Notes: generated by a model from the letters alone, not told the origin. 64,000 nt of DNA from Dehalococcoidia bacterium (GCA_003523055.1 DPHC01000002.1:282041-346040); one strand, 5' to 3'; shown: positions 3,125 to 38,141, counted from the first letter of the stretch. Translations and numbers: made by a program.

Positions 3125-3130
3125 TTATCT

Positions 3131-3389
3131 AAACGCGTCGAAAGAGACGAGTAGCAAGCGATATGAGTTAAGCGAGTCTGGTATGGTGTAAGCAGACACT
3201 ACAATCCTTGCGAATATCACTCTGGAGCGGCCTGCTGAAATCACAAAAGTAAGCTAGGACGGGAATCGTAATCCGTAAAATATTACGCGGCATGATAGTG
3301 TCGTTATGAAGAGGCTTTGCATAAATGCAAAGCAATTAGGGTGGTACCGCGGGAAAATCCCGTCCCTTGTATTAGGGGCGGGATTTTTT
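3131..3389 (+). promoter_or_regulatory. T-box riboswitch leader (probable Ile specifier AUC) controlling ilvB
   Basis: The conserved T-box sequence AATTAGGGTGGTACCGCG is at 3334-3351. Stem I elements are AGAGA (3143-47), AGTA (3150-53) and a distal GGTATGGTGTAA loop. Stem III is GCTTTGCA/TGCAAAGC (3314-3333). A terminator follows at 3354-3389. In my hand fold, helices GCAAG/CTTGC and AGAG/CTCT flank a specifier loop whose 3' side reads GAA-T-ATC-A. Confidence 0.85.
3354..3389 (+). terminator. intrinsic terminator of the T-box expression platform
   Basis: AAAATCCCGTCCC (3354-66) pairs with GGGGCGGGATTTT (3375-87), with one G-U pair. A T6 run follows. The 5' arm overlaps the T-box antiterminator region. 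Confidence 0.85.
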
Positions 3390-3418: not shown

Positions 3419-5116
3419 GTGAAACTTAAGGGCGCGGAAATAGTTTGTGAAAGTTTGATAAAAGAGGGAGTCGATGTCTTATTTGGACATCCCGGGGGAG
3501 CAATTCTTCCATTTTATGACGCTTTATGGAGTTATCCACAGCTTAAACACATTTTAGTTAGGCACGAACAATCGGCAGCTCATGCAGCTGACGGATATGC
3601 TCGCATCACTGGCAAACCAGGCGTTTGCGTAGCAACATCAGGTCCTGGAGCGACCAATCTAGTAACAGGAATAATGGGAGCAAAAGCAGATTCTGTCCCT
3701 TTAGTCGCGATTACCGGCCAAGTTGCAAGATCAGCATTGGGCTCTGAAGCATTCCAAGAATGCGATATATGTTCCATAGCAGCAGCCTGCACCAAACGAA
3801 CTTTTCTAGTTATGTCAACTGACGACCTGGCGGAAACCATACACGAAGCTTTCCAAGTTGCCCAAGAAGGCAGGCCCGGGCCTGTATTAATCGATATTCC
3901 ACGCGATGTGCAGCTAGAATTAGCAGAATTTGTTTACCCTGAAATCAAACCAGTTCAAATCCCAACAGTCAGCGCTGAAACTAAAATGAAATTACCTGAC
4001 GCAGCGCGGCTGATCAATCAAGCTGAGCGACCTGTTATTATAGCTGGACATGGCGTATTGATTTCCAAGGCAGACGAAGAACTAATACAATTATCTGACA
4101 AAACCGGCATCCCAGTAATAAATACCCTCCTAGGGTTAAGCAACTTTCCAAGAAACCATAGCATGTCATTGGGAATGCTTGGCATGCATGGAATGTACTG
4201 GTCCAATATGGCTACAGACCAAGCAGATGTAATATTTGGAGTAGGAATGCGATTCGACGACAGAGTAACAGGGAATACAGCTGCTTTCGCTCCTCATGCA
4301 AGAATTATACATCTTGATGTAGAACCCTCTCAAATTGGCAGAAATGTACCAACTGAAGTTGGATTACCTGGGGATGCTAAAGCTGTGTTAAAAGAATTAC
4401 TTCCTCTGTTAGAACAAAAAAACCACATTGAATGGGTAGAATCCATAAATAGAATAAAAGAAGAACATCCTTCGTTAGCTATTCCAAAAACAGACAAACT
4501 ACTGGCACAACATGTTTTAAAAGACTTAAATGAAATAATACAAAAAAACCCAAACACTAATGTAGTTACAGGAGTTGGACAGCATCAAATGTGGGCTGCT
4601 CAATTCTTGTTTTTAGACAAATTCAACACGTTTATATCTTCTGGAGGATTAGGAGCTATGGGGTTTGAAATACCAGCCGCATTGGGAGCACAAGTTGCTG
4701 CTCCGGATTCTACTGTGTGGACTATAGCGGGAGATGGAGGATTCCAAATGACATTACAAGAGCTCATGGTTCTTGCACATGAGAATCTCCCAGTAAAAAT
4801 AGTATTATTGAACAATGGTGTACTTGGTATGGTAAAACAATGGCAAGAGATGTATTTCGATGGTCATTTAAATCAAATACCTATGCCTGGCCCGAATTAC
4901 GTAAAACTTGCTGAATCTTACGGTATCCCTGCAGTTCGTGTAACTGAACAAGAAGACGTTTACCAGGCGTTGTTACAAGCTGAACAGCACGATGGGCCAT
5001 ATTTAGTAGAATGCGTTATAGATCCATCAGTAAACGTCTTCCCGATGGTTCCTCCTGGTGGATCTTTACCTGATACATTAGAAGATCCATTAACTAGTGC
5101 AACTTCACCTAATTAA
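3419..5116 (+). CDS. ilvB: acetolactate synthase (acetohydroxyacid synthase) large/catalytic subunit, ThDP-dependent
   Basis: 565 aa with a GTG start. N-terminus is KGAEIVCESLIKEGVDVLFGHPGGAILPFYDAL. The ThDP motif is GDGGFQMTLQEL...NNGVLGMV. It lies downstream of a branched-chain-type T-box. Confidence 0.92.
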   Translation: MKLKGAEIVCESLIKEGVDVLFGHPGGAILPFYDALWSYPQLKHILVRHEQSAAHAADGYARITGKPGVCVATSGPGATNLVTGIMGAKADSVPLVAITGQVARSALGSEAFQECDICSIAAACTKRTFLVMSTDDLAETIHEAFQVAQEGRPGPVLIDIPRDVQLELAEFVYPEIKPVQIPTVSAETKMKLPDAARLINQAERPVIIAGHGVLISKADEELIQLSDKTGIPVINTLLGLSNFPRNHSMSLGMLGMHGMYWSNMATDQADVIFGVGMRFDDRVTGNTAAFAPHARIIHLDVEPSQIGRNVPTEVGLPGDAKAVLKELLPLLEQKNHIEWVESINRIKEEHPSLAIPKTDKLLAQHVLKDLNEIIQKNPNTNVVTGVGQHQMWAAQFLFLDKFNTFISSGGLGAMGFEIPAALGAQVAAPDSTVWTIAGDGGFQMTLQELMVLAHENLPVKIVLLNNGVLGMVKQWQEMYFDGHLNQIPMPGPNYVKLAESYGIPAVRVTEQEDVYQALLQAEQHDGPYLVECVIDPSVNVFPMVPPGGSLPDTLEDPLTSATSPN

Positions 5117-34625: not shown

Positions 34626-35165
34626 ATGCATGACATAAATACTTTTACAATACGATCATATATAGAAAACGATCATCCAAAAGTATGTTCCATTTTTAAA
34701 AATGGTTTATTAAATTTAAATTATCCTGAAGGCTTTGATATCGAGCCCTATATAGAAGAATCTCTTGCTACTGATTTAAAAAACATTGAAACTGTATATA
34801 TGTTGGAATCCGGTTCTCACTTCTGGTGCGCAGTCAATGACTCAGACATTGCCGGAATAGTAGCTATAAAAAAGATTACTGATGAAGTAGCAGAATTAAG
34901 ACGAATGAGCGTGTCAGATGAGTTTCGACACCATGGAGTCGCAACAAAACTTCTAAAAACGGCAGAAACATTCTGTGTAGAAAATAATTATACCAAGATC
35001 AAACTTACAACTACCAATATGCAAATTCCTGCTGTGAATTTATATAAAAAATTCGGGTTTATTAAGTATCATAAAGAAGCATACTCTTTAATAACAGCAT
35101 ATCATTTCCAAAAACTTCTAACCGATATTCCTTTAGACAAATCAGATAGGTTTAGCCAAACTTAA
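34626..35165 (+). CDS. GNAT family N-acetyltransferase
   Basis: 179 aa. The acetyl-CoA motif is LRRMSVSDEFRHHGVATKLL, and the C-terminal region has YKKFGF. Confidence 0.8.
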   Translation: MHDINTFTIRSYIENDHPKVCSIFKNGLLNLNYPEGFDIEPYIEESLATDLKNIETVYMLESGSHFWCAVNDSDIAGIVAIKKITDEVAELRRMSVSDEFRHHGVATKLLKTAETFCVENNYTKIKLTTTNMQIPAVNLYKKFGFIKYHKEAYSLITAYHFQKLLTDIPLDKSDRFSQT

Positions 35166-35492
35166 ATGATGTCCATCCGGATCTCTAAGATGAATATATC
35201 TTTCGTTCCAAATTGCATTTTGAGGTTTGTTCTCAATGAAAATCTTTGCAGAAATTAATCTGTCATAGATTTCATCAACATCCCCAACATGAATGATAAA
35301 CCTACCCCAATTAGTGTTAATAGAATCATTAGTCTCATTCAGATTGAGATAAGAATTAGACAACTTCAATGTAGAGAATTGTGATTCAGCTCCGCCGAAA
35401 ATTACAGGTAATCCGAGTATGTCCGCATAAAACCCCAATGATATTGCCATATCCTGGATGTTCAACGTAACAGCATTTATATCGTTGAGCAT
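35142..35492 (-). CDS. VOC family protein (glyoxalase/bleomycin-resistance fold)
   Basis: 116 aa with FYADILGL near the N-terminus and LRDPDGHHLSL near the C-terminus. It overlaps the 3' end of the GNAT gene in convergent orientation. Confidence 0.78.
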   Translation of the reverse strand: MLNDINAVTLNIQDMAISLGFYADILGLPVIFGGAESQFSTLKLSNSYLNLNETNDSINTNWGRFIIHVGDVDEIYDRLISAKIFIENKPQNAIWNERYIHLRDPDGHHLSLAKPI

Positions 35493-35495
35493 GGA

Positions 35496-35942
35496 TTAGG
35501 GAGATATTATGGTTTTTTTGGACTTTAAAATACCGTACATAGTACCCAGAGCACTCATACTGCCAACATACAAAGGTCCAATGAATATAGCAATCCACAA
35601 CAATGATTGAGTTCTACGTTCCAGATCCATAATTTGGCTTAACACAAGAGCACTAATCACGATAGTAACAGCTGCCAAAACACCCATTATAAGACCAAAT
35701 TTTAAACCAAAGGATCCAGTTGCTTCGATTAATCCGTGCCTTTTTTTTGCTATGATATAACTTCCAACAAACGGACTCAATGGTATAACAAACAATATTG
35801 CAAAATGCACAACTGGCACCGGCAAAAGTATGAAAGACAATGCAGACAGAATAAGCATTATTCCATAAGACATAAAAACAGATTTCAACATATTATTTTT
35901 TTGCTCCTGTGCACCAATATTACTACTTACAAATAATACCAT
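35496..35942 (-). CDS. hypothetical integral membrane protein (about 4 TM)
   Basis: 148-aa hydrophobic ORF directly upstream of the VOC gene. No recognisable family. The start may be an internal Met. Confidence 0.45.
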   Translation of the reverse strand: MVLFVSSNIGAQEQKNNMLKSVFMSYGIMLILSALSFILLPVPVVHFAILFVIPLSPFVGSYIIAKKRHGLIEATGSFGLKFGLIMGVLAAVTIVISALVLSQIMDLERRTQSLLWIAIFIGPLYVGSMSALGTMYGILKSKKTIISP

Positions 35943-36009: not shown

Positions 36010-36038
36010 TTGACAATTATATTTAACATTATTAAACT
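36010..36038 (+). promoter_or_regulatory. candidate sigma-70 promoter for the moeB-like leader
   Basis: TTGACA (36010-15), a 17-nt spacer, then TAAACT (36033-38). The predicted start would fall at or next to the leader ATG (36045), which implies a leaderless or very short-leader transcript. Confidence 0.35.
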
Positions 36039-36044
36039 GGATAT

Positions 36045-36092
36045 ATGGAAAATAAATTAAACGCCTGTCATTGTATGTATCCTCCTAAATGA
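36045..36092 (+). CDS. candidate 15-codon leader peptide MENKLNACHCMYPPK (two Cys codons)
   Basis: The reading is ATG..TGT CAT TGT ATG..TGA. The stop codon directly abuts GAGGGT (36093-98), which copies the terminator 3' arm. No SD is visible. It has the same architecture as the leader at 37022. Confidence 0.4.
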   Translation: MENKLNACHCMYPPK

Positions 36093-36118
36093 GAGGGTAG
36101 TTACCGTTCGAATTGATT

Positions 36119-36156
36119 AAACACCCTCCTTAACACAAGAGAGGGTGTTTCATTTT
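36119..36156 (+). terminator. intrinsic terminator in the 5' leader of the moeB-like gene
   Basis: AAACACCCTC (36119-28) pairs with GAGGGTGTTT (36141-50), a 10-bp perfect stem. The trailing U-tract TTTCATTTT is interrupted. It lies 33 nt before the ATG at 36189. Confidence 0.65.
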
Positions 36157-36188: not shown

Positions 36189-37022
36189 ATGAGCCAAAAA
36201 CCAATAGCACTTACTCCTGCCCAAGTTAAAAGATATTCTAGGCACCTCATAATGAACGATGTTGGCAGCGTAGGACAACGAAAACTTTTAGACGCAAAGG
36301 TTTTGATTCTGGGAGCTGGAGGACTAGGCTCGCCTTCTGCAATATATTTAGCACTGGCAGGTGTTGGAACCATTGGGTTAGTTGATTTTGATGTCGTAGA
36401 TTTATCCAATTTACAACGCCAAGTCTTACATCACACTGCAGATGTTGGAAGGCCAAAGCTACAGTCAGCCAAAGATAATATTTTATCGTACAACCCTGAT
36501 ATTAATGTAGTTTTACACGAAACTCGGCTTGAATCTGACAATGCTATGGATATAATTTCAAATTATGACATGGTAATAAACGGAGCCGATAATTTTGCTA
36601 CCCGATATTTGGTAAATGATGCGTGCTACCTATTAGGAAAACCCTTAGTAGATGGAAGTATCTTAATATTCGATGGCCAATCAACATTATTCACACCAGG
36701 CAATGGATGTTATAGGTGCTTATTTCCATCACCTCCTCCTCCTGGTATGGTTCCAAACTGCGCTGAAGCTGGAGTATTAGGGGCCCTAACAGGACTAGTA
36801 GGGAGCATCCAAGCAACTGAAGCATTGAAGTACATTTTGGGTATAGGCCAAAGCTTAGAATCTAGATTATTAATCATAGATGCCTTAAGTATGACATTTA
36901 GAGAATTCAAACTGAGGCGAAACCCTAATTGCCCACTTTGTGGAGACAAGCCTACTGTCACAGAATTAATCGACTACGAAATTTTCTGCGGTATAACTGC
37001 AGACAGCCCTACGATGTCTTAA
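36189..37022 (+). CDS. MoeB/ThiF/HesA family sulfur-carrier-protein adenylyltransferase (E1-like), no rhodanese domain
   Basis: 277 aa. Motifs are RYSRHL, ILGAGGLGSPSAIYLALAGVG, DLSNLQRQ, and the Zn cysteines CYRC and CPLCG. Confidence 0.88.
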   Translation: MSQKPIALTPAQVKRYSRHLIMNDVGSVGQRKLLDAKVLILGAGGLGSPSAIYLALAGVGTIGLVDFDVVDLSNLQRQVLHHTADVGRPKLQSAKDNILSYNPDINVVLHETRLESDNAMDIISNYDMVINGADNFATRYLVNDACYLLGKPLVDGSILIFDGQSTLFTPGNGCYRCLFPSPPPPGMVPNCAEAGVLGALTGLVGSIQATEALKYILGIGQSLESRLLIIDALSMTFREFKLRRNPNCPLCGDKPTVTELIDYEIFCGITADSPTMS

Positions 37023-37090
37023 TGTTGATCCAACAAACACTCTCACATACCTGTTTCGACTGTTGTTGTTGCCACTGTTGTTCTCCGTAA
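37022..37090 (+). CDS. candidate 22-codon Cys-rich leader peptide MLIQQTLSHTCFDCCCCHCCSP
   Basis: The ATG overlaps the moeB-like stop (TAATG). Seven of the last 12 sense codons are TGT/TGC. The TAA stop (37088-90) sits 2 nt before AAGAGGGA, the antiterminator strand. Confidence 0.6.
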   Translation: MLIQQTLSHTCFDCCCCHCCSP

Positions 37091-37119
37091 ACAAGAGGGA
37101 TACATCAACGCATGATTTC

Positions 37120-37154
37120 AAACTCCCTCTTAATAGCAAGAGGGAGTTTTTTTT
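37120..37154 (+). terminator. intrinsic terminator between the moeB-like gene and the cysteine synthase gene
   Basis: AAACTCCCTCTT (37120-31) pairs with AAGAGGGAGTTT (37138-49), a 12-bp perfect stem with a 6-nt loop. The T run extends to 37154. It lies 25 nt before the ATG at 37179. Confidence 0.85.
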
Positions 37155-37178
37155 ACACCAACATCAAGGAATATAAAT

Positions 37179-38141
37179 ATGACTAAAACATTCATTCACA
37201 ACTCGGTTCAGGATAGCATTCTTGATACTATAGGTAATACTCCGATAGTTAAATTAAATCATTGTAGTCCCAATCCTAACGTTGATATTTATGTGAAATT
37301 AGAAGGGCAAAATCCTACTGGATCCGTAAAAGATAGAATAGCACTGAAAATGATTAATGAAGCGGAATTCCATGGAGAAATATCTACCACTCGTACTATT
37401 CTGGAACCCACTAGTGGCAACACTGGAATCTCAATCGCATTAGTAGGGAAACTAAAAGGTTTCAAAGTAAAAGTGGTTATGCCTAGCAATGTAAGTTCAG
37501 AACGTACACAACTCTTAACGGCTTATGGCGCAGACATAGTGTATTCTGAGGGAGAAAAAGGCAGCAACGGTTCAATTGAACTAGCCCAAGATATTCTAAG
37601 TAAAAATCCTGAAGACTATTACATGCCTTACCAGTACGGTAATCAAGCTAATCCACGAGCTCATTATGAAGGAACAGGACCAGAAATTTTAGCAGCAGTC
37701 CCAGACCTAGATGTTTTCATTGCGGGATTAGGGACAGGTGGTACTTTAACAGGTACAGGGCAATATTTAAAAGATAACAACCCTGAAGTAAAAATTGTAG
37801 CGGTTGCTCCAGAGCCAGATGATTTAATATCGGGGTTGCGTAGATTAGAAGATGGATTTATACCTCCAATTTTGGATATAAATGTTTTAGACTCGAGACT
37901 TCTAATAAGCAGCTTTGATGCGTTTAAAACAACAAAAATATTACTAGAAAAAGAAGGTATATTCGCAGGTATTTCTTGTGGTTCAGTGGTATATGGAGCA
38001 ATCAAACAAGCAGAAAGGATGAAATCTGGCAAAATAGTTTGCTTATTGGCCGACGGGGGTTGGAAATACCTAAGTACTAGTCTTTGGACAAAAGACTATC
38101 CCCAACTGGCAGAAGAATCCAAGGGCAAAATTTGGTGGTAA
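37179..38141 (+). CDS. cysteine synthase (PLP-dependent O-acetylserine/O-phosphoserine sulfhydrylase, CysK/CysM family)
   Basis: 320 aa. The PLP lysine is in NPTGSVKDR. It also has TSGNTGISIA and GTGGTLTG. I cannot separate CysK from CysM by eye. Confidence 0.9.
   Translation: MTKTFIHNSVQDSILDTIGNTPIVKLNHCSPNPNVDIYVKLEGQNPTGSVKDRIALKMINEAEFHGEISTTRTILEPTSGNTGISIALVGKLKGFKVKVVMPSNVSSERTQLLTAYGADIVYSEGEKGSNGSIELAQDILSKNPEDYYMPYQYGNQANPRAHYEGTGPEILAAVPDLDVFIAGLGTGGTLTGTGQYLKDNNPEVKIVAVAPEPDDLISGLRRLEDGFIPPILDINVLDSRLLISSFDAFKTTKILLEKEGIFAGISCGSVVYGAIKQAERMKSGKIVCLLADGGWKYLSTSLWTKDYPQLAEESKGKIWW

Follow-up and report, generated by a model that had tools for sequence, protein, structure and literature searches.

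A short leader upstream of a MoeB/ThiF-family gene in the window (the whole 64 kb stretch of DNA that was analysed; 37% GC) is most probably a ribosome-mediated, cysteine-responsive transcription attenuator, as judged from its sequence and its orthologs. The regulatory fit follows from four pairing segments that lie in order and form successive helices with predicted energies of −8.2, −9.6 and −16.5 kcal/mol; the geometry fits the classical model. The names of the homologues of the MoeB protein (gene at 36189-37022) place it in the marine SAR202/Dehalococcoidia, phylum Chloroflexota. Gene regulation is almost unknown in SAR202 and the rest of the Dehalococcoidia, which are abundant in the ocean and uncultured. 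The leader provides a concrete cis-regulatory element for this group, and the covariance model built from its orthologs (R1, see below) can find more.

Leader ORF and promoter

The 5' part of the leader unit contains the following features:

36010-36038, plus strand: sigma-70-type promoter, TTGACA (36010-15), 17-nt spacer and TAAACT (36033-38), matching the consensus at 10/12 positions
36045-36092, plus strand: leader ORF MENKLNACHCMYPPK followed by TGA, 15 codons, with the ATG 6 nt past the −10 box
36066-36074, plus strand: regulatory codons TGT-CAT-TGT (TGT at 36066-68 and 36072-74), kept in orthologs

The ORF reads ATG GAA AAT AAA TTA AAC GCC TGT CAT TGT ATG TAT CCT CCT AAA TGA; the stop codon occupies 36090-92, with GAGGGT (36093-98) immediately 3' of it. 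An earlier reading of this DNA, made from the sequence only, had claimed a 15-codon ORF with TGT-CAT-TGT and a TGA directly adjoining GAGGGT, and both are present, the ORF translating as MENKLNACHCMYPPK. Two Cys per 14 codons are expected by chance in about 6% of cases at the base composition of the window (our own estimate). This number by itself is unremarkable; it is the conservation in orthologous loci that shows the leader to be real. The presence of only two Cys codons, listed in the sequence-only reading as a weak point, holds for the window leader, but the sister strains have three (MENKLNACHCMCPPK) and the family two to four, with a single Cys in two members (L010 and L042).

The leader ORF has no Shine-Dalgarno (SD) sequence ahead of it, and in 3/3 low-GC variants 6 nt separate the −10 box from the ATG. 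The leader mRNA is probably leaderless, as predicted from this spacing, and leaderless initiation would explain the missing SD. Since the distance between −10 box and ATG is constant at 6 nt despite a differing spacer, leaderless initiation appears to be selected and not a defect. The sequence-only reading had listed the missing SD and a nearly leaderless start as weak points; the constant spacing in the three low-GC variants speaks against counting them as a weakness. Chloroflexi are predicted to have few leaderless genes (~5% of genes, 4/12 genomes; PMC3160421). Consensus scans for promoters and terminators yielded sites no more numerous than in shuffled sequence, and the terminator scan did not call the leader's terminator in the window.

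Putatively regulated genes and operon context

Two genes would be controlled by the leader:

36189-37022, plus strand: MoeB/ThiF-family adenylyltransferase, first regulated gene, 277 aa, without rhodanese domain (PF00899, E 1.2e-82; NF004281, 288.6 bits vs a cut-off of 266)
37179-38141, plus strand: cysteine synthase (CysK/CysM subfamily), last gene of the unit (PF00291; TIGR01136, 346.6 bits vs a cut-off of 344.15)

An SD-like AAGGA of moeB is located at ~36177-81, 20-30 nt past the leader structure; in the predicted fold it is unpaired with the leader and not sequestered. The cysteine synthase gene is followed 3' by nusA. The gene upstream of the leader promoter is divergent, so the leader hairpin cannot be the terminator of that gene; it sits between a promoter and the gene which that promoter serves. 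The divergent strand holds two genes (window 35142-35942, minus strand), one a 148-aa ORF without Pfam or NCBIfam match and the other a glyoxalase/FosB-like protein of a thiol-transferase fold family; both neighbours are syntenic in low-GC relatives.

In related Dehalococcoidia, a ThiS-family ORF of ~100 codons lies between moeB and cysM (L026, L032, L033, L035, L039, L043, L047-L049 and L080). These ORFs contain ...LPALAGG, at times with extra residues after it, and the gene looks like a CysO-type sulfur carrier. The presence of this carrier gene between the two indicates, by analogy with Mycobacterium, a MoeZ/CysO/CysM-type sulfur-carrier path to cysteine. A ThiS/CysO-like ORF ending in GG was sought across the 64 kb window and none was found; as the carrier gene is absent from the window and the SAR202 loci, it must sit elsewhere in those genomes. 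The leader would tie the MoeB/ThiF gene to cysteine synthesis (CysO-type pathway) and not to molybdopterin or thiamine, which improves the annotation.

Four segments and alternative helices

The four segments of the leader RNA are:

36078-36085, plus strand: segment 1, TATCCTCC, within the last ORF codons; pairs with segment 2 in a hairpin of −8.2 kcal/mol
36091-36102, plus strand: segment 2, GAGAGGGTAGTT, begins within the stop codon; pairs with segment 1 or, as antiterminator, with segment 3
36119-36131, plus strand: segment 3, AAACACCCTCCTT, terminator 5' arm, of which 36120-28 alternatively pairs with segment 2
36137-36156, plus strand: segment 4, AAGAGAGGGTGTTT, terminator 3' arm plus U-tract TTTCATTTT (36148-56); terminator of −16.5 kcal/mol

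On folding, helix 1:2 joined 36078-85 to 36091-99. This helix was absent from the sequence-only reading and completes the classical four-segment design. Helix 2:3, the antiterminator, joined 36093-102 to 36120-28 (−9.6 kcal/mol) by pairing of GAGGGT (36093-98) with ACCCTC (36123-28) and of GTT (36100-02) with AAC (36120-22). The GAGGGT/ACCCTC pairing had been proposed before and is borne out by the energies of the hairpin and of the segment 2/segment 3 duplex; the latter, −12.1 kcal/mol, is equalled or bettered by 0.14% of the window's own 14-mers. Helix 3:4, the terminator, joined 36119-31 to 36137-50 in a 13-bp stem, which is followed by TTTCATTTT. GAGGGT had also been described as a copy of part of the terminator 3' arm, and the repeat proved to be longer: the 8-mer GAGAGGGT at 36091-98 recurs exactly at 36139-46. 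Both strands of the 64 kb window together contain it 3 times, vs ~1 expected. The leader stop codon overlaps segment 2.

The U-tract TTTCATTTT is interrupted, and close relatives have only four U past the stem; relatives range from UUUU to U8, and this weak point of the sequence-only reading remains a real one. Equilibrium folding with segment 1 masked still favoured the terminator over the antiterminator, in the window as well as in close relatives, so the switch needs kinetic, co-transcriptional folding. Known attenuators likewise favour the terminator at equilibrium.

Proposed mechanism

The attenuator would sense charged tRNA-Cys and control moeB and, further on, cysK/M. Transcription would start at or beside the A of the ATG at 36045, and the ribosome would initiate on the leaderless 5' AUG. 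When cysteine is plentiful, the ribosome would reach the TGA at 36090-92, where its footprint would cover segment 2 (36091-102); segments 3 and 4 would then form the terminator and RNA polymerase would stop at ~36150-56. When Cys-tRNA is scarce, the ribosome would stall with TGT 36072-74 (or the sister-strain codon at 36078-80) in the A site. The stalled ribosome would cover segment 1 (36078-85) and leave segment 2 free to capture segment 3 before segment 4 is made, so that no terminator forms and moeB is transcribed. The Cys codons are not adjacent (C-H-C in the window leader), and a stall at the first of them (36066) would leave segment 1 free. In the absence of a ribosome, helices 1:2 and 3:4 would both form, resulting in termination.

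Orthologous leaders

Species-representative genomes, when scanned, gave 80 moeB loci. The moeB-cysM synteny is maintained across Dehalococcoidia, and the leader unit was found upstream of moeB-cysM in ~30 SAR202/Dehalococcoidia loci with GC contents of 37-64% (3 low-GC variants plus ~27 high-GC leaders). Absence of the ORF and of the alternative pairing from orthologous leaders had been named as evidence against the attenuator; both are present in these ~30 loci. In each, the stop codon lies 0-2 nt ahead of a G-rich segment with which the terminator 5' arm is able to pair. The ORF is 14-19 codons long in all loci except L090 (29 codons), and TTGACA is invariant in 21/21 aligned orthologous leaders (37-64% GC). 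The N-terminal two thirds of the leader peptide are unconserved.

The low-GC variants were obtained by exact-protein look-ups only, which gave three leader types besides that of the window:

MKQISVICACMNLQT: low-GC leader, MoeB 91% identical
MKQIIVNCACTKLHM: low-GC leader, MoeB 91% identical
MENKLNACHCMCPPK: sister-strain leader, MoeB ~100% identical

A metagenome scan for closer relatives gave none above 84% identity. In every low-GC relative the ORF has 15 codons, with C-x-C at residues 8 and 10, and 0-2 nt separate its stop from (G)GAGGGT; the terminator arms are ACACCCTCC and GGAGGGTGTTT. The codon TAT at 36078-80 is TGT in the sister strains, adding the third Cys codon. The Cys codons of this lineage lie outside every helix yet are conserved.

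The conserved unit upstream of moeB in L001-L019 and L022 (44-64% GC) starts with a promoter of TTGACA, 17 nt and TA[GC]ACT, and the start codon follows 7-11 nt on (16 in L001). The ORF ends in C-x-C(-x-C)-P-x-T-TAG (~27 high-GC leaders), and 3' of it lie GGGGGCAGGC and GCCTGCGCCC, then an inner hairpin and, past it, GGGCGCAGG followed by a T-run. In addition to L001-L019 and L022, metagenomes yielded nine such leaders. The N-terminal residues vary, but the frame, the start position and the Cys codons are retained. The L110 leader has TCHCTCPPT, close to CHCM[Y/C]PPK of the window lineage; in fact, the sister-strain tail CHCMCPPK nearly equals CHCTCPPT of L110. The leaders of L081 and L087 have no Pro. 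Among other Dehalococcoidia, L029 and L041 have variant leaders that contain ...C-T-C-T-R-R... and are followed by terminators. The leader unit is absent from L020, L021 and L034.

A few loci deviate in ways of their own. The frame of L009 (2784-2826) is broken by a gap of 2 nt in the first Cys codon, which could be an assembly error or decay, and L010 (2857-2877) has C-T-S in place of C-T-C; both retain the RNA segments. On a 42% GC Dehalococcoidia contig (L044, 3850-4020), the moeB-cysM interval, and not the region upstream of moeB, holds the promoter, the Cys leader MFLMCRCTNS and the terminator; the unit seems to have shifted its place in the cluster. Of two contigs with 32% GC, one of which is TMED70, L038 (~2830-2960) has TATAAT, 6 nt, an ATG...NICCCRRSVEL ORF and a terminator upstream of moeB, and L042 (~2830-2960) has MKRFKDDLFHLCSSLP, with a single Cys and related to MRFEDDLFHLCNCSKK of L022.

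Covariation and covariance model

Pairing was counted in 20 high-GC sequences. In helix 1:2, 89.8% of the cells were paired and 1 pair had changed on both sides; the corresponding values were 93.8% and 3 pairs for helix 2:3, and 87.5% and 6 pairs for helix 3:4. Slid controls gave 31-54% pairing overall and 31-48% for helix 2:3. Between lineages the four segments changed together with complementarity kept, being CCUGUCCCC, GGGGGCAGG, CCUGCGCCC and GGGCGCAGG in one and CCUCC, GGAGGGU, ACCCUCC and GGAGGGUG in the other. The stem and T-run of the terminator are retained in orthologs. An automated test of the segment 2/segment 3 duplex, with a crude definition of the arms, gave a median z of −2.0, with 18/31 leaders reaching 5% of shuffles or less, which favours the pairing but does not settle it.

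The first Cys codon of the high-GC leaders has an unpaired third base, which in the alignment varies between T and C only, a synonymous change. Judged by the alignments, the Cys codons behave as coding and not as RNA features. The second Cys and the Pro codons of the high-GC group fall in helix 1:2, and their conservation in this group could be due largely to the RNA helix.

R1, the covariance model, draws on 20 high-GC orthologous leaders and contains no low-GC sequence. Its top match in the window was 36062-36155, full length and with both hairpins in register, at 17.4 bits (E 1.8e-5 in 5 kb, filters off); L174 scored 18.6 bits and L081 10.8 bits. With default filters over 455 kb the window leader was not reported, which indicates that its sequence-level homology to the high-GC family is modest. 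Part of the case for its homology comes from synteny and from the match in the sister strains.

A second Cys leader

A second instance of the design, ~1 kb away, had been claimed in the sequence-only reading, and a poly-Cys leader with a strong terminator is indeed found before cysK/M:

37022-37157, plus strand: second Cys leader MLIQQTLSHTCFDCCCCHCCSP (37022-37090) plus terminator (37120-49 plus U8); its start overlaps the moeB stop as TAATG

The leader has seven Cys codons, and its terminator has a 12-bp stem and U8. Only the low-GC lineage has this leader; in high-GC relatives, moeB and cysM are separated by a short, plain spacer. Its relatives have TAAATG with MDIYKTYTSNATCCCLCTPL or MISASLSGCNLICCCLCSPL. 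The position of the start within the moeB stop (TAATG, or TAAATG in relatives) suggests reinitiation after termination. R1 matched the second leader weakly (8.0 bits). A scan for more units of Cys sORF plus terminator in the 64 kb window returned the two known leaders only, other matches lying inside coding regions.

It is possible, though on balance doubtful, that Cys-codon ORFs, leaderless or nearly so, together with intrinsic terminators form a lineage-wide cysteine 'ribulon' in Dehalococcoidia/SAR202 that governs the MoeB-CysO-CysM-type route, with two stacked attenuators of differing sensitivity in the low-GC lineage. The low-GC marine lineage would then stack a leaderless leader with 2-3 Cys codons and a leader with 4-7 Cys codons, the latter translated by termination-reinitiation at the moeB stop, which would give a graded response with two thresholds. 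Taken with the mycobacterial system discussed below, leaderless cysteine sensing would be an old Terrabacteria trait and not a mycobacterial peculiarity.

Alternative explanations

In principle, the leader RNA could bind a metabolite or protein and switch independently of translation, the ORF being incidental. The four pairing segments are the best-conserved bases of the leader, and the second Cys and Pro codons of the high-GC group, lying inside helix 1:2, may be conserved as RNA. We nevertheless regard such a switch as improbable: no loop, junction or aptamer-like core is conserved besides the alternative helices, the spacers vary freely, and no Rfam family, T-box included, matches. The start codon, moreover, is always found 6-11 nt (once 16 nt) past the −10 box and in frame with the Cys codons, and the stop codon always adjoins segment 2. 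In the low-GC leaders no helix includes the Cys codons, which are conserved all the same, and the third base of the first Cys codon, itself unpaired, is restricted to T and C. There is also little chance that the ORF senses cysteine with another output, be it termination by Rho or, as with the mycobacterial Cys sORFs, control of moeB translation. In its favour, low-GC leaders have a weak or interrupted U-tract, the mycobacterial precedent is translational (10.1101/834739) and actinobacterial Cys leaders lack terminators (PMC1262725). However, a GC-rich stem followed by a T-run is present in every ortholog, with 6 compensatory pairs, and the AAGGA of moeB (~36177-81) lies 20-30 nt past the structure and is unsequestered in the predicted fold.

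The conservation of the C-x-C(-x-C)-P motif across lineages at the peptide level would suit a functional Cys-rich micropeptide (metal- or redox-active, or a precursor), with the hairpin merely its terminator. We consider this very unlikely, as the N-terminal two thirds of the peptide are unconserved and L081 and L087 have no Pro. The stop is always fused to segment 2 and the terminator 5' arm always complements that segment, neither of which a plain terminator needs, and the unit is always ahead of Cys-synthesis genes even where its position varies (L044, between moeB and cysM). Pro-Pro stalling or a metal-binding peptide was considered separately and rejected, since helix 1:2 takes in the Pro codons, which L081 and L087 lack. 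The frequency of two Cys in 14 codons (~6% expected by our estimate) and the promoter and terminator scans, no richer than shuffled sequence, would even allow a chance ORF beside an ordinary hairpin; conservation in ~30 loci across 37-64% GC, covariation and the R1 match effectively refute this, and it is hardly credible.

Comparison with known systems

As a candidate cysteine attenuator, the leader has no counterpart in Rfam 15: no family reached its gathering score at the leader locus or at 10 orthologous loci, searches of the leader locus at E up to 10 gave sub-threshold noise only, and for annotation neither the 15-codon ORF nor the leader RNA matches any family. A Cys attenuator in Chloroflexota did not turn up in full-text searches of the literature.

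With the classical attenuators (trp, his, leu, thr, pheA and ilv of Proteobacteria; trp and ilvB of Actinobacteria), the window leader shares a short promoter-proximal ORF rich in codons for the product, the segments 1:2, 2:3 and 3:4, a stop beside segment 2 and an intrinsic terminator before the first structural gene. It differs in that it would sense cysteine and belongs to Chloroflexota, in that it has only 2-3 regulatory codons, which alternate (C-x-C-x-C) and do not form a run, and in its ORF, which lacks an SD and by prediction is leaderless. Neither sequence nor Rfam relates it to these attenuators (Phe_leader scored 20.6 bits vs a gathering score of 55).

Cys T-box and S-box leaders of Firmicutes are likewise terminator/antiterminator switches before cysteine or sulfur genes, but the leader locus has neither structure, and the proposed sensor is a translating ribosome and not an RNA-tRNA or RNA-SAM contact. 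A full-length T-box is present elsewhere in the window (3129-3370, plus strand, 131.5 bits), upstream of an ORF (3419-5116) for a TPP-dependent enzyme of the acetolactate-synthase type. In this genome, then, a T-box seems to serve a branched-chain amino-acid gene, with leader peptides taking that role for cysteine.

In Actinobacteria, Cys leader peptides lacking a terminator have been predicted (Seliverstov et al. 2005, PMC1262725), and in M. smegmatis leaderless poly-Cys sORFs unmask a downstream SD (Canestrari et al. 2020, 10.1101/834739). The mycobacterial 'Cys ribulon' resembles the window in its Cys-codon short ORFs upstream of cysteine-metabolism operons; its ORFs are leaderless, as is predicted for the window leader, and a stall at Cys codons relieves repression, as is proposed for it. 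The ribulon occupies several loci per genome that respond independently, and the window has two leaders in tandem. The mycobacterial case is, however, translational (SD unmasking) and without terminators, whereas the window leader has a conserved terminator/antiterminator pair. Furthermore, the mycobacterial class has at least 2 consecutive Cys codons, whereas the window leader has C-H-C (although the leader at 37022 has CCCC), and it has an SD-sequestering duplex, whereas AAGGA of moeB is unpaired with the leader and a terminator is found instead. The phylum is another one and there is no sequence similarity shown between the two. The window leader is not a member of the mycobacterial class, since its Cys codons are not consecutive and a terminator takes the place of SD sequestration.

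The predicted Cys-codon attenuator uORFC-8-2, upstream of cysS in Rhodobacterales (Brewer et al. 2021, PMC8632094), also ends in a terminator, and is like the window leader in its conserved AUG, two conserved Cys codons, stems and terminal U-run. It is alphaproteobacterial, regulates cysteinyl-tRNA synthetase and not cysteine synthesis, and has its Cys codons in tandem at positions 14-15, inside the first stem.

Overall, the proposed attenuator is of an ordinary type with a textbook mechanism, previously unrecorded for SAR202 (Chloroflexota). The classical terminator mechanism that is missing from the actinobacterial cases is found in the SAR202 leader, and Chloroflexota would join Actinobacteria and Rhodobacterales as a group with ribosome-based cysteine sensing.
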